The position numbers and the translations under genes are program-made. DNA of 64,000 nt, taken from the sequence record PZ445435.1, one strand, 5' to 3'. Positions 1,341 through 17,377 of the stretch are shown piece by piece. How positions within the stretch are numbered: the first letter of the stretch is position 1; every line of letters starts with the position of its first letter. The stretch is from a phage. The notes under the pieces are model-generated. The model was given only the letters and a program-made list of their open reading frames with translations. It was not told the DNA's origin and did no database searches.

Positions 1341-1534
1341 ACTAATTCCTTTAATCCGTAGATAGGAGATAATTCATCACCCATACGAAGGTCTTCATTT
1401 CCATCTACCCAGGAAACAATATAAGCCTCTTTTATTTGAATACCACTCCATTTAAATGGAGGTAGAACCTTAGAAATTAATCCAGGTATACCAACTCCCT
1501 TTAATTCAACGGTTTGACCTAAAAAGAATTTCAT
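1337..1534 (-). CDS. hypothetical protein (65 aa)
   Basis: ORF track, overlaps neighbours by 4 nt. Confidence 0.4.
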   Translation of the reverse strand: MKFFLGQTVELKGVGIPGLISKVLPPFKWSGIQIKEAYIVSWVDGNEDLRMGDELSPIYGLKELV

Positions 1535-1821
1535 TAAAACCTCATCTGAAAACCATGCGATTTAACGTTACCACCGCCAATATCAGAAATATTAATTTCA
1601 CGCGCAATTGAAGGGTCAATGTCAATTTCACGATTGAGTTTAGTGATAGCTAAAGTATCGCGCCCATTTACAGTACGGAACTCTAAAGGACAAACCACAT
1701 CAACGTAGTTTTTAATCGATTCGCTAGTAGGTTGCAAATGAGCAGGAAGGTCTTTGGGCGCCTTTGAGAAAACCACTTCACAGAAATTTTTGCGGGTATC
1801 AAAATAAGTAGTCATAAACAT
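1534..1821 (-). CDS. hypothetical protein (95 aa)
   Basis: ORF track; GAGGA Shine-Dalgarno upstream. Confidence 0.45.
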   Translation of the reverse strand: MFMTTYFDTRKNFCEVVFSKAPKDLPAHLQPTSESIKNYVDVVCPLEFRTVNGRDTLAITKLNREIDIDPSIAREINISDIGGGNVKSHGFQMRF

Positions 1822-1837
1822 AATATTTTCCTCAGTA

Positions 1838-1853
1838 AGGGGCCGAAGCCCCT
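1838..1853 (-). promoter_or_regulatory. intercistronic stem-loop (AGGGGC-UUCG-GCCCCU) immediately upstream of RBS
   Basis: Perfect 6-bp stem with UUCG tetraloop between two ORFs, no U-tract. Confidence 0.4.
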
Positions 1854-1863
1854 CATTTTATTT

Positions 1864-2241
1864 TTAAATATCAAATTCGTTAAGAACTACATCAAAGATT
1901 GCTTCCAAGTGCTCAGGTTTAGCTTTGTTACTCAGAATATGACGAATCCAAGTTTTAACTAAGAGTTTACGATTAGCACCATTCCAGCAAGGATGAGTCC
2001 CTAAATCGCGTTGGCGGAAATCATCATCCAGAGCGATTTTGAAGTTGGAACCTTTCATCGTGATTGAAACCGTGATACCGTTTTCAAATCGCATATAAAC
2101 GTAGTTAGGAGTCATATACTGTTCAATTTCGCATACTGATCCGTTTTGATGTTTCCAGAGGCAAATAGTATCAATAGAACCTGCAATACCATTAGAAACA
2201 TATTTACGTTCAAAGTTGATGTAGTTCATTTTATTCTCCAA
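1864..2241 (-). CDS. hypothetical protein (125 aa)
   Basis: ORF track. Confidence 0.45.
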   Translation of the reverse strand: MENKMNYINFERKYVSNGIAGSIDTICLWKHQNGSVCEIEQYMTPNYVYMRFENGITVSITMKGSNFKIALDDDFRQRDLGTHPCWNGANRKLLVKTWIRHILSNKAKPEHLEAIFDVVLNEFDI

Positions 2242-2264
2242 GATGTTTAATTGCGGTACAGGTA

Positions 2265-2294
2265 TATAATATCATATCCTGTACCAAAGTAAAC
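2265..2294 (-). promoter_or_regulatory. T4-type early promoter (-35 GTTTAC, -10 TATTAT region)
   Basis: GTTTAC at 2294..2289, -10 about 17-18 nt downstream; palindrome gtacagg...cctgtac encloses the -10. Confidence 0.5.
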
Positions 2295-2296
2295 AA

Positions 2297-2629
2297 TTAT
2301 TTTACTACTTTCCAATGCTGCATGTCAAGTTTACCAACTTTTTTCATCTTCTCAATTAAGCGTTCTGCACGTTGGCGAGCTGTAACATAATGCCATTCGC
2401 CTAATTCATTTTGTTCAATTTTTCCAACGATTACTGTATTCAATTCATAAATCCAACCAGTAAAGAAATTATGAACTTGAATTGTAAAGGTGAAATCTGT
2501 TCCCATACCTTCTGTTGTTTCTACTTCAATAATATCACCTTCAACTGCCATTAAGAACCACATAGTTTCATTATATTTACCATTGAAGCATTTAGTTTTA
2601 ACTGCAGCGTTCAGATTAATCGTTTTCAT
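2297..2629 (-). CDS. hypothetical protein (110 aa)
   Basis: ORF track. Confidence 0.45.
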   Translation of the reverse strand: MKTINLNAAVKTKCFNGKYNETMWFLMAVEGDIIEVETTEGMGTDFTFTIQVHNFFTGWIYELNTVIVGKIEQNELGEWHYVTARQRAERLIEKMKKVGKLDMQHWKVVK

Positions 2630-2656
2630 TTTATTCTCCTTTGTTTGTGTAAGATA

Positions 2657-2686
2657 ATACTATCACAAAGGAACCATACTGTAAAC
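2657..2686 (-). promoter_or_regulatory. T4-type early promoter (-35 GTTTACA, -10 TAGTAT)
   Basis: Motif match and spacing; just downstream of a terminator hairpin. Confidence 0.5.
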
Positions 2687-2708
2687 AACTTTGTGCAATC
2701 TTTGGAAA

Positions 2709-2734
2709 ATAAAAAAGGACTCCCGAAGGAGTCC
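2709..2734 (-). terminator. rho-independent terminator (GGACTCC-UUCG-GGAGUCC + U6)
   Basis: Perfect 7-bp stem, UUCG loop, T-run on minus strand. Confidence 0.7.
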
Positions 2735-2739
2735 TCAAC

Positions 2740-2916
2740 TTATGCTTTCTGCTTACCAAAACGAGAAGCATCATCTCGAAGAACCGCACGTGCTCGGCGC
2801 ATGATCTTCTCAACAGTTTGATTGATACGAGAGTTCGACCCACGCTTGTAGCCAGCGCGTTTAGAATCACCAACTTTCTTTTCAACTGCTTTCTTTGCTT
2901 TAGCTTGTTTTGCCAT
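2740..2916 (-). CDS. small basic protein (58 aa, start at internal ATG)
   Basis: ORF track; Lys/Arg-rich; T4 30.9 position. Confidence 0.4.
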   Translation of the reverse strand: MAKQAKAKKAVEKKVGDSKRAGYKRGSNSRINQTVEKIMRRARAVLRDDASRFGKQKA

Positions 2917-3204
2917 TATAAATTCTCTTTTAAATGAAAATGCAGGACTTATTGGCATTGCCTGCGAAAGCCCTCAAAGGGGTACTTAGGTTTTGAATAT
3001 TTACCGACAGGATAACCATAAACCCGTCATCATACCACCAAGACTTACACAGATAACACTTTTCTGACGCATGATAGTAACATTCAAGAGGTACACCATA
3101 AAACTGCCGGGGTCTTAAAACTATAATGATTCGCAAATCATTAATCAGACAGTTCGACGGCTCCTCGTTTTAACTTCACACTAAGGCAGTGACTCTCCAA
3201 TAAA

Positions 3205-6394: not shown

Positions 6395-7616
<1,222 letters not shown>

Positions 7617-7620
<4 letters not shown>

Positions 7621-9051: not shown

Positions 9052-10639
<1,588 letters not shown>

Positions 10640-10647
10640 AATAAAAT

Positions 10648-10661
10648 GGGCCTTGCGGCCC
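10648..10661 (-). promoter_or_regulatory. GNRA-loop hairpin (GGGCC-GCAA-GGCCC) 8 nt upstream of denA ATG
   Basis: Perfect 5-bp GC stem between nrdB stop and denA start. Confidence 0.4.
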
Positions 10662-10666
10662 ACTCC

Positions 10667-11845
10667 TTAAAAATATTTTTTAAAACTCATCATAACTTTA
10701 TCATCAACATCATTATCAATCTGTGCAACAAGATAAGATGACAGTTCTACTTCTTGTGGCGCGGATTGAACATTATCAGAATTAAGATATTCACGAATCC
10801 AAGGATATGGGTGTTTAACCGGAGCATCGGTAATTGGGCATGGAAGACCACACTGTTTCATACGAGATACAGTTAAGTAATCAATAAAGCTCCACATGTT
10901 ATTTGTATTTAATCCAGGAACATCGCCATCTTTAAATAAATGAACTGCCCAATCTTTTTCTTGGCGGTTAACTTCCATGAAAATATCAACTGCTTCTTGT
11001 TCACACTCTTGAGCAATTTTAACCCATTCATCGCCATCAGTGCCAAGTTGAAGTTGACGAATAATATATTGAGTGCCTTTAAGGTGAAGCTGTTCATCAC
11101 GTGCAATGAACTTCATAATCTTTGCATTGCCTTCCATAATTTCCATGTTCTTATGGAAGTTAAAGGTACATGCGAAAGATACATAAAAACGAATAGCTTC
11201 CAATGCGTTGATTACATGCAAACAGAGGTAAAGAGATTTCATTAGCTCACGCTTCCAATATGTCTCATGCTCAATAGCATCTTCAATAACATCTTCGTCT
11301 GCATTAATTTCTTTTTGGTATTCGATATCAGCTTTAGCGTTTTCCCAATAACGAGTTTTAGTCAGAACATCATCATAATAACGTCCAATGGATTCAGCAC
11401 GTTTCATAATAGCTTCATCTAATACAATCTCATCAAATACCTTTGACGGATCAGTATAAAGATTTCGCATGATATGTGTATATGAACGAGAGTGAATAGT
11501 TTCACTAAAAGTCCACGTAGCAACCCATGTATCAAGGCTTGGGTCTGAAATTAATGACATAAGTACAGCAGACGGCGCACGACCCTGAATGCTATCCAAA
11601 AGTGATTGATACTTCAGGTTATTAGTAAAAATATTTTGCTGATACTGAGGAAGCTTATTAAACTGTGCAGCATCCATCATTAAGTTTACTTCTTCAGGAC
11701 GCCAAAAAAATGATAAAGATTTCTCAATAAGTTCTTCAAATACTCTATGTCGTTGAATATCATATCGAGCTAAACCCAATCCAGAACCAAAAAACATCGG
11801 CTCAGTCAAAATATTAACAGGGGATGTATTAAAAACTGTACTCAT
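10667..11845 (-). CDS. nrdB: ribonucleotide reductase small subunit (intronless)
   Basis: 392 aa, di-iron/tyrosyl radical R2 family, contiguous ORF. Confidence 0.9.
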   Translation of the reverse strand: MSTVFNTSPVNILTEPMFFGSGLGLARYDIQRHRVFEELIEKSLSFFWRPEEVNLMMDAAQFNKLPQYQQNIFTNNLKYQSLLDSIQGRAPSAVLMSLISDPSLDTWVATWTFSETIHSRSYTHIMRNLYTDPSKVFDEIVLDEAIMKRAESIGRYYDDVLTKTRYWENAKADIEYQKEINADEDVIEDAIEHETYWKRELMKSLYLCLHVINALEAIRFYVSFACTFNFHKNMEIMEGNAKIMKFIARDEQLHLKGTQYIIRQLQLGTDGDEWVKIAQECEQEAVDIFMEVNRQEKDWAVHLFKDGDVPGLNTNNMWSFIDYLTVSRMKQCGLPCPITDAPVKHPYPWIREYLNSDNVQSAPQEVELSSYLVAQIDNDVDDKVMMSFKKYF

Positions 11846-12483
11846 TTAGAATCCTTAAATTTACATTTATCATAATGCCATCTTAAAGCATTGCCTTTAT
11901 TAACTTTCTTGCCACAATGCGGACAAGGCGGATACTCTGTACCTTGCTTAGTTCTCAAAGAAATCAAATCACGGGTTTCTTTAGTATGAGGAACATCTCT
12001 TGTCGGAGAGATTGTACCATACATCGGATTAAGCACGCCGACTTTAGCAGCAGCTATATTCTTTTTAGCTTCTTCGGTTTTAGGTTTTCTCATGCGAGCT
12101 AAATGCTCTTTGGTAAATTTCCTTCCTTTAAGGGCTCTACTTATCTTTTCTCTGGTTTCCATAGAAACTTCACGTCCTGTAGCAGCTTCAGATAAACGTC
12201 GTCTACCTAATTCGTACAGTTGAGAAGAAATTTTATATGAGCGATTTTTACCAGTCAAGCACATTAAACCAAAAGCTTTCTTTAATCCTGGAGTGTCATA
12301 TATTTTACATAAAAGCCAATGAGCTATAAAATGCTCTCTACCTGTTAATTCAACTAAATTTTCTTTATCATCAGAACCTCCCATACATCTAGGGATTATA
12401 TGATGAGTCTCTTTATATCCTAATAAAGGTTCCCGGGTTTGAGCCCGGGAAATTAAACTATTATATACATTTTGATAATTCAT
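11842..12483 (-). CDS. mobE: free-standing HNH homing endonuclease (MobE-like)
   Basis: HHIIPRCMGGSDDKENLVELTGREHFIAHW HNH core and C-terminal CPHCG zinc finger; lies between nrdA and nrdB. Confidence 0.75.
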   Translation of the reverse strand: MNYQNVYNSLISRAQTREPLLGYKETHHIIPRCMGGSDDKENLVELTGREHFIAHWLLCKIYDTPGLKKAFGLMCLTGKNRSYKISSQLYELGRRRLSEAATGREVSMETREKISRALKGRKFTKEHLARMRKPKTEEAKKNIAAAKVGVLNPMYGTISPTRDVPHTKETRDLISLRTKQGTEYPPCPHCGKKVNKGNALRWHYDKCKFKDSK

Positions 12484-14747
12484 TATAATTTACAGGATGA
12501 ACAATCTTCAGCTTTTGGAGTTTCTATTTCATAATCATCAGTACCAGAACCATCGCGGGTATTATGATAATAGAAATTTTTTCCGCCAAAATACCAGAAA
12601 TACAAAAGGTCATCAATCATTATTGACATTGGAACCTTGCCTTTAGGGAAGATTTGGGGGTCATAGTATGTATTCGCCGAAGCTGATTGACAAACCCATT
12701 TCAGCATAATAGCTACCTGCGTAAGATAAGGTTTATTACCTTTCTTAGCTAATTTCCATGTATAATCATAGAGGTCTATGTTATGCTCAATATTGGGCAC
12801 GACTTGATTAAAGGAGCCCTCTTTTGATTCTTTAACAGAGACTGGTCCACGTGGAGGCTCGATACCGTTTGTACTGTTAGAAACTTGGGAAGATGACTCA
12901 CATGGCATAAGTGCTGATAATGTGCTATTACGGATGCCAAAGAGCTTAAGGTCTTCCCGCAGCGACGACCAGTCACAAACGTATTTTGGAGCTGCGATTT
13001 GGTCAATCTTTTTATTGTACCAGTCGATAGGTAATTCGCCTCGAGACCAACGAGTGTCTGAATAATATTCGCAAGGTCCTTTTTCTTTGGCGAGCTTAAT
13101 GGATGCTTTAATGAGTCCATACTGTAATCTCTCAAATAGTTCATGTGTTAAATCGTTAGCATCTTCATAAGAAGCAAAGTTACTTGCCAGCCAAGCCGCA
13201 TAGTTGGTAACACCTACACCGAGGTTACGACGCTTTTTAGCTTTTTCTGCTTCAGGAACTGGATATCCTTGATAATCCAAAAGATTATCAAGAGCACGAA
13301 CTTGAACTTCTGCCAATTCATTAATTTTATCTTGGTCTTGCCAGTCAAAATTATCTAGTACGAATGCAGAGAGAGTACACAATCCAATTTCAGCATCAGG
13401 ACTGTTCACATCATTTGTTGGAATAGCAATTTCACAGCACAAGTTACTCTGACGAATAGGTGCCTTTTCACGAATAAACGGAGTATAGTTATTCGTATTA
13501 TCAATGAACTGCACATAAATCCTTGCTGTTCCTGAACGTTCAGTCATGAGCAATTCAAATAGTTCACGGGCTTTAATACGCTTTTTACGAATATTAGGGT
13601 CTTTTTCTGCTGCTTCGTATAATTCACGGAAACGGTCTTGGTCTTTAAAATAAGAATAATAAAGCTCGCCACCCATTTCATGCGGACTGAACAAAGTAAT
13701 GTAATCGTTCTTTCCGAATCGTTCCATCATCAAATCATTCAGCTGAACACCATAATCCATATGACGAATGCGGTTTTCTTCTACGCCTTTGTTATTTTTC
13801 AAAACGAGAAGATTTTCAACTTCCAAATGCCAAATAGGATAATAAGCAGTAGCAGCGCCGCCACGAATTCCACCCTGTGAGCATGATTTAACTGCAGTCT
13901 GAAAATGTTTCCAAAAAGGAATAACACCAGTATGGCGTACTTCACCCATGCCAATCTTAGAACCTTCGGCACGAATCATACCAACATTAATACCAATTCC
14001 AGCGCGTTTAGAGATATATTCAACAATTGAAGCGGAAGCCTTATTGATAGACTTCAATGAATCACCTGCCTCAATAACAACACATGAACTAAACTGTCGA
14101 GTCGGAGTACGACAACCAGCCATAATAGGAGTTGGCAATGAAATCTGTCGAGTAGATACTGCTTCATAAAAACGGATAACATGTTTTAATCTATCAACAG
14201 GTTCATCTTGATGCAGTGCCATTCCAATAGTCATAAATGCAAACTGCGGAGTTTCATAAATTTGACCGGTGGTTTTATCTTTAACTAGATATTTTTCTTT
14301 TAATTGCATCGCCCCGGAATAAGTAAATTCCATATCCCGCTCGTGCTTAATTTTTGATTCTAAAAATGTAATTTCTTCTGCTGAATATTTTGACAATAAT
14401 TCAGGGTCATATTTACCTGCATTTACACAATAAGAAATATGGTCAATAAATGAACGCGGTTCATACTGCCCATAAACATGCTTACGAAGAGCAAACATTA
14501 AACAGCGTGCAGCTACATATTGATAATCAGGCTCTTCAACCGAAATAGAATTCGCAGCAGCCTTAATGACAATAGTCTGAATATCATCAGTTGTCATTCC
14601 ATCACGGAGATAAGATTTAATATTTTCATATAATTCATAAGGATCTACTGATGTTCCCTCAGCTGCCCAAGATAAAACTTTAATAATTTTTTGTGGGTCA
14701 AAGCTCTGAGAAACACCACTACTTTTGATAACATTAATTAATTGCAT
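12483..14747 (-). CDS. nrdA: ribonucleotide reductase large subunit
   Basis: 754 aa class Ia R1, C-terminal CxxC tail. Confidence 0.95.
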   Translation of the reverse strand: MQLINVIKSSGVSQSFDPQKIIKVLSWAAEGTSVDPYELYENIKSYLRDGMTTDDIQTIVIKAAANSISVEEPDYQYVAARCLMFALRKHVYGQYEPRSFIDHISYCVNAGKYDPELLSKYSAEEITFLESKIKHERDMEFTYSGAMQLKEKYLVKDKTTGQIYETPQFAFMTIGMALHQDEPVDRLKHVIRFYEAVSTRQISLPTPIMAGCRTPTRQFSSCVVIEAGDSLKSINKASASIVEYISKRAGIGINVGMIRAEGSKIGMGEVRHTGVIPFWKHFQTAVKSCSQGGIRGGAATAYYPIWHLEVENLLVLKNNKGVEENRIRHMDYGVQLNDLMMERFGKNDYITLFSPHEMGGELYYSYFKDQDRFRELYEAAEKDPNIRKKRIKARELFELLMTERSGTARIYVQFIDNTNNYTPFIREKAPIRQSNLCCEIAIPTNDVNSPDAEIGLCTLSAFVLDNFDWQDQDKINELAEVQVRALDNLLDYQGYPVPEAEKAKKRRNLGVGVTNYAAWLASNFASYEDANDLTHELFERLQYGLIKASIKLAKEKGPCEYYSDTRWSRGELPIDWYNKKIDQIAAPKYVCDWSSLREDLKLFGIRNSTLSALMPCESSSQVSNSTNGIEPPRGPVSVKESKEGSFNQVVPNIEHNIDLYDYTWKLAKKGNKPYLTQVAIMLKWVCQSASANTYYDPQIFPKGKVPMSIMIDDLLYFWYFGGKNFYYHNTRDGSGTDDYEIETPKAEDCSSCKL

Positions 14748-15064
14748 AAGTCCTCAACTTGAAAATCGTCTTTAAACAATCGGTTAACTATATGAGCTAT
14801 TATATCACCATGACACGGCTTTGGTTTACATGTGCATCCTAGCCTCATTCCACGTAAAGGCTCTAAATGTGCTTTAGTTATTTCTCCGGATTTAATTCGA
14901 CGTATAAAATCTTTTTTGAATAATTCAATGGCAGCCTCCCGGCTGCCAGCATCTTTACCGACGTAATTTCCCCAAAATGTACCGCGGTGAATATTAACAT
15001 CAAAGTCGGATTTGTATTTATTCACTACCCGGCATAGACGGCCCGGTTGGTAATAATTCTTCAT
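14738..15064 (-). CDS. DUF4326-like protein (108 aa)
   Basis: C...CxC...CHGD pattern; ORF track. Confidence 0.45.
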
Positions 15065-15281
15065 ATTGTTTTTCCGTTAAAACAGTAATATCGTAGTAAC
15101 AGTCAGAAGAAGTTTTAACTGTGGAAATTTTATTGTCAAAATACTCACGAGTCATTTTATGAGTATAGTATTTTTTACCATAAATGGTAATAGGCTGTTC
15201 TGGTCCTGGAACTTCTAACTCGCTTGGATTAGGAAGTGTAAAAAGAACGACACCAGAAGTATCTTTAAATCGTAAAATCAT
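15018..15281 (-). CDS. hypothetical protein (87 aa)
   Basis: ORF track; 47-nt overlap with downstream ORF. Confidence 0.4.
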
Positions 15282-16138
15282 ATTGCCATTTTCCCTTTAA
15301 TTGCTGGATGCGATTCATAATTTTCAAGGATAAAATCTTTCGGTTTCATGTATTCAGTTAACCAGTAAAGCTGTGTTTCGGTGTCACAATTTTCAAACTC
15401 TATAGGCCAATCAATTTTAAGTTCGCACAGTTCTTTAGGCTCACGACGTAAAATTTCTTTACATTGTTCTACATGATTCATATAGATATGAGTATTACCA
15501 CCAGAAAATATCAAATCTCCTGGGATAAGATTACACATCTTAGCCATAATATGCGTCAAGGCAGCGTACGAGGCAATGTTGAATGGCAAGCCCAAGAAAA
15601 CATCTACACTTCTTTGGTACCACTGTAAATCAAGATAACCATTACGCACATTAAACTGATAGAACATATGACAGGGTGGTAATGCCATTTGATTGATTTC
15701 AGCTGGATTCCATGCTGAAACGATTTGACGTCGATCAGTTGGTAATTTTTTAATACGATCAATAGTTTCAACTAATTGATCCACACCACCGAAATCACGC
15801 CATTGTTTACCATATATAGGACCCAGTTCACCACTATGATATCCTAGGTCTTTAGCTTGGTTTTCATAATTGTCATCCCAGATAGTTTTACCTTGAATAA
15901 GACTACCGTGAGTAAGAAGACGTAAATCATTAACATTGGTAGAACCGGAAATAAACCATAAAAGCTCAGCAATGCATGCATTCCAGGCGAGCTTCTTAGT
16001 TGTTACTGCAGGAAAACCTTTACTTAAATCCCAGCGTAATTTAGTACCGAACAAAGCAATTGTTCCTGTGCCCGTTCGGTCATCGGTTTCATAGCCATTT
16101 TCAAAAATGTCTTTAATTAAATCTTGGTATTGTTTCAT
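15278..16138 (-). CDS. td: thymidylate synthase (intronless)
   Basis: 286 aa contiguous; matches recalled T4 TS. Confidence 0.95.
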
Positions 16139-16183: not shown

Positions 16184-16531
16184 TCAATACGGTTTAGCAT
16201 CAAATTTTCTCTCAATTTCAGGCGTGAAATATAATTCTTTACCGCGTTTGGAAAAGCGACCAATAATATGATAATTATTCTCATCAAACGTGATATTACC
16301 AATATCCATAGCTTTCAACCAAATATCGATATTTCTATCCAACTTTATGTCAAAATTCCAATACGGAGAACTATTACCGAAAATACTGCAAGCGGATTCA
16401 GTAAAACAACTACTATAAATCTTATCTTTAGGAACTACTAATTGATAGACACCTTTAATAAACTGAGGACCCTGCCATTTTGGTTGTTTCGTGTCTTTTT
16501 CTAATAGAATAGGGTAATAATTAAAATTCAT
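16184..16531 (-). CDS. hypothetical protein (115 aa) inserted between frd and td
   Basis: ORF track; no recognisable motif. Confidence 0.45.
   Translation of the reverse strand: MNFNYYPILLEKDTKQPKWQGPQFIKGVYQLVVPKDKIYSSCFTESACSIFGNSSPYWNFDIKLDRNIDIWLKAMDIGNITFDENNYHIIGRFSKRGKELYFTPEIERKFDAKPY

Positions 16532-16550: not shown

Positions 16551-17377
<827 letters not shown>

Follow-up and report, generated by a model that had tools for sequence, protein, structure and literature searches.

Between nrdA and nrdB, a 64,000-nt stretch of phage DNA (record PZ445435.1, here called the window) holds an open reading frame of 213 codons. The question is what this gene encodes, where its product would act and how the genome that carries it would be spared. 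The source genome belongs to the T4-like genus Tequatrovirus, and its identity to Escherichia phage AdolfPortmann is about 99%. Over 10200-15300 the DNA matches that phage at 98.8%, and the genes follow the same order as in T4 and T6, whose annotation names this one mobE. A sequence-only reading had taken the ORF for a free-standing, MobE-like HNH homing endonuclease and placed it at 11842-12483 without giving a strand; the ORF is present there, on the minus strand. The genes and protein domains of the locus are as follows.

11842..12483, minus strand: coding sequence of mobE in its T6-type allele, 213 aa and a stop codon (ORF, protein identities, Pfam, PHROG 655)
12483..14747, minus strand: nrdA, 754 aa, upstream of mobE (ORF and Pfam domains)
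10667..11845, minus strand: nrdB, intronless, 392 aa, downstream of mobE, presumed target gene (single ORF, Pfam Ribonuc_red_sm)
12298..12417, minus strand: HNH beta-beta-alpha-metal nuclease core, aa 23-62, with H27, H28, N42, H51 and H55 (Pfam HNH, alignment, AF2 model)
11941..12204, minus strand: NUMOD3-type helical repeat region, aa 94-181, presumed DNA-binding linker (Pfam NUMOD3, model helices)
11863..11925, minus strand: C-terminal CCHC zinc knuckle, C187, C190, H203 and C207 (invariant residues, T4 identity)

Identity and domains of the mobE product

The gene sits between nrdA and nrdB and runs in their direction, as does the annotated mobE of T4 and T6. At the aa level the 213-aa protein matches the "putative homing endonuclease" of AdolfPortmann (QXV75340) at 100%, T6 MobE (AXN58263) at 97% and T4 MobE at 69-76%; the BLASTP comparison with T4 MobE that had been proposed gave a full-length match of 69% (E 2e-116). 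Over the allele-specific middle segment, a T6 record annotated 'mobE: MobE' (AY262134.2) agrees at 100%. The protein matches PHROG 655 'homing endonuclease' at E 9.5e-66, and, given 225 homologs at E<=1e-5, the homing-endonuclease identity of the ORF is far beyond chance. It is very probable that the ORF is mobE, the T-even free-standing HNH homing endonuclease in its 213-aa T6 form, and that it is expressed, acts and persists as set out below from T4. This allelic form was first annotated in phage T6. The gene is ordinary and already known: it has long been annotated, it has been studied experimentally in T4, and the exact protein is already in GenBank.

Pfam HNH matches aa 24-44 at 23.0 bits, barely over the cutoff of 21.4, and past the nuclease domain, towards the C-terminus, Pfam NUMOD3 scores 35.5 bits (cutoff 20.4). 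The motif letters read H27-H28-I-I-P-R-C33, N42, H51 and H55, followed by C187-P-H-C190, H203 and C207; the canonical HNH core and the C-terminal CxxC zinc finger claimed earlier are both in the sequence. Loss of catalytic HNH residues on alignment was looked for, and H27, H28, N42, H51 and H55 proved invariant, together with C187, C190, H203 and C207, in 52 homologs whose alignment reaches down to 36% identity. In the AF2 model, strands 25-28 and 43-46 and helix 48-61 (pLDDT >90) form a beta-beta-alpha fold, and the NUMOD3 region has four short helices (108-118, 125-131, 137-146 and 168-181). The set of the HNH superfamily (PF01844), a His general base, a structural Asn and a metal-binding His on a beta-beta-alpha scaffold, is present. 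A PDB sequence search returned HNH-motif matches only, none of them significant (best E 0.19), and whole-chain fold searches gave no significant match and did not recover I-HmuI.

I-HmuI and I-HmuII are intron-encoded HNH nicking homing endonucleases of the Bacillus phages SPO1 and SP82, located in a DNA polymerase gene, and resemble MobE in combining a modular HNH nuclease with an extended DNA-binding tail. Their strand-specific nicking still drives homing, and the cleavage site is offset from the insertion site. These points are also taken up in the discussion of PMC2790892. In T4 MobE, deletion of aa 33-62, the HNH region, abolishes nicking (PMC2790892).

The nrdB gene is one uninterrupted ORF of 392 aa, the same length as the intronless nrdB of T2, in agreement with the earlier claim that the nrdB intron is missing; the T4 nrdB annotation joins two exons. 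Over the whole window no Rfam family, and so no group I intron, passes threshold. The td gene of this genome is also intronless, whereas T6 carries a td intron with I-TevI. An intron-associated (I-TevIII-like) element was rejected as an identity for the ORF, which is free-standing, flanked by complete nrdA and nrdB ORFs and without an Rfam intron. T4 has a downstream nrdB intron with I-TevIII to mobilise in trans; here there is none.

Embedded signals and the presumed nrdB target region

The signals at the ends of mobE and the presumed target tract are as follows.

12480..12485, minus strand: TAATGA, in which the nrdA stop TAA shares one base with the mobE ATG and TGA is a second nrdA-frame stop (sequence)
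12420..12451, minus strand: internal intrinsic-terminator hairpin with 8-bp stem and 6-nt loop (12451-12430) and a short U-rich tail (fold prediction)
11852..11893, minus strand: mobE 3' end with putative nrdB expression signals, the MotA-box-like cAATGCTTTA (11884-11893) and the nrdB Shine-Dalgarno AAGGA (11852-11856) (T4 identity)
11842..11845, minus strand: ATGA, in which the mobE stop TGA overlaps the nrdB start ATG (sequence and ORF coordinates)
11715..11732, minus strand: nrdB nt 114-131, counterpart of the polymorphic stretch within the MobE target (aligned to T2 and T4)

The sequence-only reading had ATGA overlaps on both sides of the gene. This is correct at mobE/nrdB (11845-11842) but not at the nrdA side, which reads TAATGA (12485-12480). 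No Shine-Dalgarno sequence precedes the mobE ATG, and the TAATGA overlap in its place suggests translational coupling of mobE. A UAAUGA arrangement has been described at the T4 nrdA/mobE junction (PMC2988022). The terminator hairpin begins 32 nt after the mobE ATG, has a dG of -16.5 kcal/mol (z -3.2) and is the sole terminator-like site in 11600-12800. Its homologs in T4, RB3 and the Klebsiella Jiaodavirus Boboto fold alike, with a 9-bp stem and 4-nt loop in T4 against the 8-bp stem and 6-nt loop here, and an A-U pair in T4 is G-C here, a compensatory change. In T4, mobE and nrdA are transcribed together and the internal hairpin terminates 30-50% of transcripts (PMC2790892).

Over its last ~55 nt mobE has the same sequence as in T4 and T6 (100% identity), and the nrdB middle promoter of T4 has been mapped in the mobE 3' region (PMC2790892). 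A strict MotA-box scan (WWWTGCTTYA) of the mobE 3' end gave no match, because the first base of cAATGCTTTA is C; the putative nrdB middle promoter is therefore placed within the mobE 3' end solely by identity to T4.

The likely target had been given as the nrdA-nrdB junction or the nrdB of related phages. The nrdB part agrees with the published target of T4 MobE, and the spacer part does not: the MobE-dependent nick lies at nt 122-126 in the nrdB of mobE-less T2 and is abolished by HNH deletion, and non-Mendelian inheritance and homing were shown for T4 mobE (PMC2790892). T4 MobE was never purified, and the authors allow a double-strand break or action via another nuclease (PMC2790892). The equivalent of nt 122-126 here is 11720-11724 (minus strand), and codons 42-43, AAA TCT (K-S), occupy 11717-11722. 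The linked nrdB thus reads K42-S43-L44 as opposed to R42-Q43-I44 in T4. EKSL was found in all five close T6-type carriers examined; EKQL was found in 29 of 30 IMG/VR loci (none with a T4- or T6-type mobE) and also in T2 and RB3, and the matching codons of T4 encode ERQI. A distant homolog in KM16 adjoins an EKQL-type nrdB, so the link between allele and target variant is not absolute. The K42-S43 (AAA TCT) substitutions at the nick site of its own nrdB probably protect the carrier from MobE.

Alleles, distribution and competing readings

T6 MobE (AXN58263; AY262134.2) shares the 213-aa length, the junction and the overlaps, and from codon ~56 through the stop codon, and further over nrdB nt 1-150, the nt identity is 100%. 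It differs by six substitutions in the first 22 residues (N5K, V6I, S9D, T16A, L21S, G22E); over the first 165 nt identity falls to 91.5%, suggestive of a recombination breakpoint within mobE. The experimentally characterised member is T4 MobE (232 aa; Wilson & Edgell 2009, PMC2790892), at the same locus, with a near-identical HNH domain and with its last 83 aa identical except for one residue. The internal terminator and the TAATGA overlap are likewise common to the T4 gene, and so is the 3' end, which carries the nrdB promoter in T4. The middle (aa ~56-130) is diverged and 19 aa shorter here; its nt identity to T4 is 61% (dN 0.75, dS 1.78), against 88-96% on either side. Since the diverged, shorter middle third is likely part of the DNA-binding region, the target could differ from that of T4 MobE. 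The RB3-type 'mobE' (243 aa) lies at the same junction and has a homologous N-terminal HNH domain (~85% nt identity over the first 187 nt). Its C-terminal two-thirds are unrelated, with NUMOD1 replacing NUMOD3 and the CCHC knuckle, and its carriers keep a T2-like EKQL nrdB.

The junction can also hold other genes. In two loci (L032 and L041) it is filled by a 519-530-aa ORF with weak restriction-endonuclease-like matches. Hef of phage U5, a different free-standing endonuclease gene, reportedly replaces mobE at the nrdA-nrdB junction, as Sandegren et al. are said to have described in 2005; neither in sequence nor in fold class is Hef related to MobE. In the Marfa-like locus L035, a 171-bp spacer retains only a short piece of the mobE 3' end.

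Distribution is patchy. Enrichment at the nrdA-nrdB site was looked for in relatives: mobE occupies the same junction in many of them, three further genera included, and most close relatives lack it. Within one species, AdolfPortmann has mobE and phage teqdroes does not. About 434 records (at least 95% identity) have the contiguous T2-like junction, empty of mobE; the T6-type allele is in 36-53 (its allele-specific segment in 36), the T4 type is in 22 records and the RB3 type in 57. These frequencies are rough, as duplicate GenBank/RefSeq entries and T4 laboratory strains are among the records counted. The allele census was based on an NrdB-anchored scan and on phage-record searches; a scan of IMG/VR with MobE returned only distant relatives (31-57% identity) and was of no use for a census of the T6-type allele. 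The 213-aa T6-type form, and not the T4 form, is the widespread architecture, in four genera of the Tevenvirinae.

In Boboto, mobE is ~89% (87-93% nt) identical to the gene here, compared with ~72% (69-74%) for the flanking nrdA/nrdB, a clear signature of horizontal transfer as judged by sequence identity. The Boboto nick-site tract is 92% identical to this genome and the intervening nrdB nt 1-100 only 73%, a pattern that does not fit one simple co-conversion tract. Cross-genus excess similarity and presence/absence within a species argue for recent movement of mobE. The patchy distribution and the Boboto identities lend homing in mixed infections indirect support. The dN/dS of mobE against Boboto, LF82-5 and KM16 is 0.11-0.19, with 0.06-0.31 in all three protein domains, and the gene is under purifying selection. 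The reading as a decaying remnant was rejected because of the dN/dS values and the invariant residues.

The diverged middle segment also bears on whether a protein of this family has acquired a different target. Its central DNA-binding segment would then have been replaced, and its site would lie elsewhere in nrdB, in the 3' end of nrdA or in a T4-type nrdB variant, so that alleles compete. The dN and dS of the middle segment against T4, compared with a dS of 0.2-0.5 in the flanking parts, indicate a recombinant mosaic; at codons 42-44 of nrdB each mobE allele comes with a haplotype of its own; nrdA, too, is polymorphic over its last 200 nt (86-90% identity vs 97-99% upstream); and the RB3 'mobE' has swapped its whole C-terminal half for a NUMOD1-containing one. 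A changed target is nevertheless unlikely, as the HNH domain and the last 83 aa (zinc knuckle, two NUMOD3 helices) are near-identical to T4 MobE and the carrier-specific nrdB changes sit exactly on the T4 MobE nick site, which suggests that the same site is attacked. It is conceivable, if doubtful, that T6-type, T4-type and RB3-type mobE are competing alleles with distinct specificities, each paired with a protective nrdB haplotype (K42-S43-L44 here, R42-Q43-I44 in T4, synonymous-only changes in RB3). The T6-type would then also attack carriers of the other alleles, and Q43S would be an immunity mutation carried with the gene across genera.

Domestication is very improbable. A mobE that is no longer mobile here might be kept for the nrdB middle promoter and ribosome-binding site in its 3' end, with the hairpin balancing NrdA and NrdB. 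The putative nrdB promoter and the Shine-Dalgarno do lie inside mobE, selection against deletion was noted by the authors of the T4 study (PMC2790892), and the L035 remnant shows that the mobE 3' end can outlive the gene. However, promoter need would constrain the last ~60 nt only, yet low dN/dS extends over all three protein domains; the catalytic and zinc-binding residues are invariant, and the transfer pattern favours recent movement over domestication. The possibility that MobE is not itself a nuclease, but binds DNA site-specifically and recruits or controls a different phage nuclease that breaks nrdB, was raised by Wilson and Edgell because activity was never reconstituted in vitro (PMC2790892). 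It is scarcely credible here: the complete HH-N-H-H metal/catalytic set, invariant down to 36% identity, is hard to explain for a mere adaptor, and the T4 nick was lost with the HNH region (PMC2790892).

Proposed mode of action and significance

For the T6-type protein, nicking, target position, homing and self-immunity are inferred from T4. By homology to T4, mobE would have no promoter of its own and would be transcribed as the tail of nrdA messages. Translation would be at a low level, coupled through the TAATGA overlap, and the weak terminator hairpin just within the mobE 5' end would attenuate expression further. In a mixed infection, MobE would bind the 5' part of the nrdB of a mobE-less phage. 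The conserved DNA that codes for FFWRPEE would presumably be gripped by the NUMOD3 helices and the CCHC knuckle, and the N-terminal HNH domain would nick the non-coding strand ~20 nt upstream of it, at nrdB nt ~122-126. Recombinational repair off the mobE-bearing genome would then copy mobE and flanking nrdA/nrdB sequence into the recipient. The K42-S43 codons at the nick site of the carrier nrdB would probably confer self-protection, and the putative nrdB middle promoter and ribosome-binding site in the mobE 3' end would discourage clean loss of the gene.

Beyond correct annotation the significance is slight, mobE being a textbook free-standing homing endonuclease. The added value is comparative and lies in the widespread T6-type form, the horizontal-transfer signature and the linked nrdB Q43S. 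The presence of Q43S at the mapped nick site in carriers provides a testable handle on how such elements spare their own genome.

Gene order and identity of mobE

The window belongs to a T4-like phage. Its span 10200-15300 matches Escherichia phage AdolfPortmann (Tequatrovirus teqdroes) over the full length at 98.8% identity and hundreds of further Tequatrovirus records at 90-99%, and its ORFs have the same coordinates as the annotated AdolfPortmann genes. Genes around mobE were assigned from ORF calls, Pfam and the AdolfPortmann annotation. All lie on the minus strand, in the order of the classic T4 map, and T4 and T6 annotations call the gene in the nrdA-nrdB interval mobE.

Genes of the mobE region
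16551-17132 (-), frd
16184-16531 (-), 115-aa ORF
15278-16138 (-), td, uninterrupted
15018-15281 (-), nrdA.2
14738-15064 (-), nrdA.1
12483-14747 (-), nrdA
11842-12483 (-), mobE ORF, 213 aa
10667-11845 (-), nrdB, 392 aa, uninterrupted
10229-10663 (-), denA
9052-10212 (-), rnlA (RNA ligase RnlA by AdolfPortmann annotation)

The 213-aa ORF, HHIIPRC...N...H motif and C-terminal CxxC described in the sequence-only reading are all present. Pfam identified HNH (23.0 bits, cutoff 21.4) and NUMOD3 (35.5 bits, cutoff 20.4), and PHROG 655 'homing endonuclease' matched with E 9.5e-66. The mobE stop and nrdB start overlap in ATGA (11845-11842). ATGA was claimed on both sides and is literally present at both ends, but the upstream overlap involves the TAA of nrdA: in TAATGA (12485-12480) the last base of this stop is also the first of the mobE ATG; TGA gives nrdA a second in-frame stop. 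The UAAUGA arrangement at T4 mobE has been described (PMC2988022). With this correction the observation is confirmed. The genome was also rightly said to lack the nrdB intron: nrdB is a single ORF equal in length to the intronless nrdB of T2, whereas T4 nrdB consists of two joined exons plus I-TevIII. Rfam at the gathering threshold found no family in the whole 64 kb, hence no group I intron.

The protein is 100% identical to AdolfPortmann QXV75340, 97% identical to T6 MobE and 69% identical to the 232-aa T4 MobE (BLASTP, E 2e-116). Residues 1-55 and 131-213 are near-identical to T4 MobE, whereas the stretch at approximately 56-130 has diverged strongly and has 19 aa fewer; DNA identity to T4 mobE is 88%, 61% and 96% in the three parts in order. 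Because dN is 0.75 and dS 1.78 in the middle segment, compared with dS 0.2-0.5 on either side, separate ancestry is indicated for this segment rather than local drift. The same segment is 100% identical to T6 record AY262134.2 ('mobE: MobE'), so the element was already known and named, and it can be identified as the T6-type allele of annotated mobE. The last 200 nt of nrdA, 12483-12682 (-), form a polymorphic patch (86% identity to T4, T6 and RB3, 90% to T2; remainder of nrdA 96-99%), and the first 165 nt of mobE are 91.5% identical to T6, the rest 100%. Both features suggest recombination breakpoints clustered near the nrdA/mobE boundary.

The genome is poorer in mobile elements than T4. The td gene lacks an intron and I-TevI, and in collinear AdolfPortmann (record L123:43211-45028) the topoisomerase large subunit is one 1818-nt gene with neither mobA nor the gene 60 split. 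In the part examined, mobE is the sole clear homing endonuclease gene. The 115-aa ORF 16184-16531 (-), also present in T2, is labeled 'putative homing endonuclease' in AdolfPortmann; this label looks unsupported, with no Pfam match and phrog_1928, function unknown, as the only PHROG match. The 106-aa ORF 7300-7620 (-), downstream of pseT, is labeled likewise and matched nothing in Pfam at E<=0.01.

Regulatory signals

Only one site in 11600-12800 resembles a terminator, the hairpin at 12451-12430 (-), 32 nt after the mobE ATG, with the sequence TTCCCGGG-CTCAAA-CCCGGGAA, then CCTTTATTAG (-16.5 kcal/mol, z -3.2). The stem and loop measure 9 bp and 4 nt in T4 and RB3, and 8 bp and 4 nt in Boboto. 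One stem pair, A-U in T4, is G-C in the window through CGA-to-CGG (synonymous) and GCT-to-ACC, a compensatory change within the coding sequence that keeps the pair intact. In T4, where mobE lacks its own promoter and is transcribed together with nrdA, 30-50% of transcripts end at this hairpin (PMC2790892). The final ~55 nt of mobE, identical to T4 and T6, include cAATGCTTTA and the nrdB ribosome-binding site AAGGA. The T4 nrdB middle promoter is located in this 3' region (PMC2790892); the site in the window misses the strict MotA-box pattern by one base.

Distribution and other occupants of the junction

Using 251 nt of T2 as query, the empty junction was contiguous in 643 of 1020 records (434 at >=95% identity). 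Allele-specific middle segments occurred in 36 (T6-type), 22 (T4-type, mostly T4 strains) and 57 (RB3-type) records, and the whole T6-type mobE was covered at >=80% in 53. By these counts, in which duplicate records are included, some mobE is present in roughly one in five Tequatrovirus records and the T6-type in about 6-9%. Within one species, phage teqdroes has an empty junction and AdolfPortmann carries mobE. The same element is at the same site in Jiaodavirus Boboto, Mosigvirus LF82-5 and Moonvirus KM16. Between Boboto and the window, mobE shares 87-93% nucleotide identity against 69-74% for nrdA and nrdB, a signature of transfer. In RB3 'mobE' (locus L005, 1957-2688), as in the 57 RB3-type records, the similarity to T4/T6 MobE is confined to the N-terminal HNH part, the remainder comprising NUMOD1 and a differing C-terminus; this gene is thus a chimera made by domain swapping that occupies the same junction.

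In some phages (SHFML-26, hits H20/H21; hit H26; HY03, hits H30/H31) the 95-96% match of the region falls into two pieces about 1.1 kb apart. Their annotation places an intron-type endonuclease next to the homing endonuclease at the mobE position, and SHFML-26 has the T6-type segment. Thus mobE and an intron seem to co-occur in some genomes, with mobE alone in the window.

The nrdA-nrdB junction is generally a hot spot for insertions. In two IMG/VR T4-like loci (L041 ~1390-3000, L032 ~1405-3000) it is filled by a 519-530-aa ORF whose weak matches, to MTES_1575 (E 1.5e-4) and DUF559, are restriction-endonuclease-like; this ORF may be of the 'Hef' type replacing mobE. Codons 41-44 of L041 nrdB read ERSL, hence are altered at the MobE nick site too. 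In L035 (2829-3001) the 171-bp spacer holds a remnant of the last ~18-30 MobE residues (89% identity over 18 aa), apparently left behind by a loss of mobE that spared the promoter-bearing 3' end. In more distant T4-like loci (L019-L021, L026, L027, L030, L033, L036, L037, about 2500-3000) the spacer of 235-508 bp contains one or two ORFs of 54-127 aa, several ending ...EFEEVK, with no relationship to mobE.

Selection, target site and proposed mode of action

A search of 5.8 billion proteins yielded 225 homologs at E<=1e-5, of which 52, down to 36% identity, were aligned. Loss of catalytic HNH residues was looked for, and the residues are kept: invariant columns include H27, H28, N42, H51 and H55 (the HH-N-H-H set) and C187, C190, H203 and C207 (the CCHC knuckle). 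Against mobE orthologs of other genera, Nei-Gojobori dN/dS was 0.11 (Boboto), 0.18 (LF82-5) and 0.19 (KM16), and <0.35 in each of the three MobE domains, which shows purifying selection on the whole length, beyond the nrdB promoter stretch. The earlier reading as a homing endonuclease is supported.

T4 MobE makes an HNH-dependent, strand-specific nick at T2 nrdB nt 122-126; in T4 x T2 crosses mobE is inherited ~2-fold over with co-conversion of flanking sequence, and a defunct nrdB intron is mobilised in trans (Wilson and Edgell, PMC2790892). These authors proposed a bipartite site, with a DNA-binding module on the conserved FFWRPEE-coding DNA and the HNH domain on polymorphic nrdB nt 114-131, where polymorphisms would protect carriers (PMC2790892). 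By homology, nicking, homing and use of a bipartite site would extend to T6-type MobE.

Residues at nrdB codons 41-44
EKQL: 29 of 30 IMG/VR T4-like loci (several genera, none with T4/T6-type mobE)
EKQL: T2 (no mobE), RB3 (RB3-type)
EKSL: window, T6, AdolfPortmann, Boboto, LF82-5 (CAG/CAA to TCT)
ERQI: T4
EKQL: KM16 (66% aa MobE homolog)

The linkage of T6-type mobE to EKSL is strong, though not absolute. Boboto nrdB is 92% identical to the window at nt 101-150 and only 73% at nt 1-100, so one continuous conversion tract does not explain it.

A target different from that of T4 MobE is possible for the T6-type allele, in which the middle segment is replaced; against this, the carrier-specific nrdB changes coincide precisely with the site nicked by T4 MobE. 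That mobE has merely been domesticated as a promoter-carrier is unlikely, since selection acts on the entire protein. An invariant catalytic set is difficult to reconcile with the adaptor hypothesis of Wilson and Edgell, by which MobE itself is not the nuclease. It is conceivable, if rather doubtful, that competing specificities underlie the different mobE alleles and the nrdB haplotypes linked to them. The target-site and comparative results extend Figure 8 of the 2009 paper (PMC2790892) without changing that figure.
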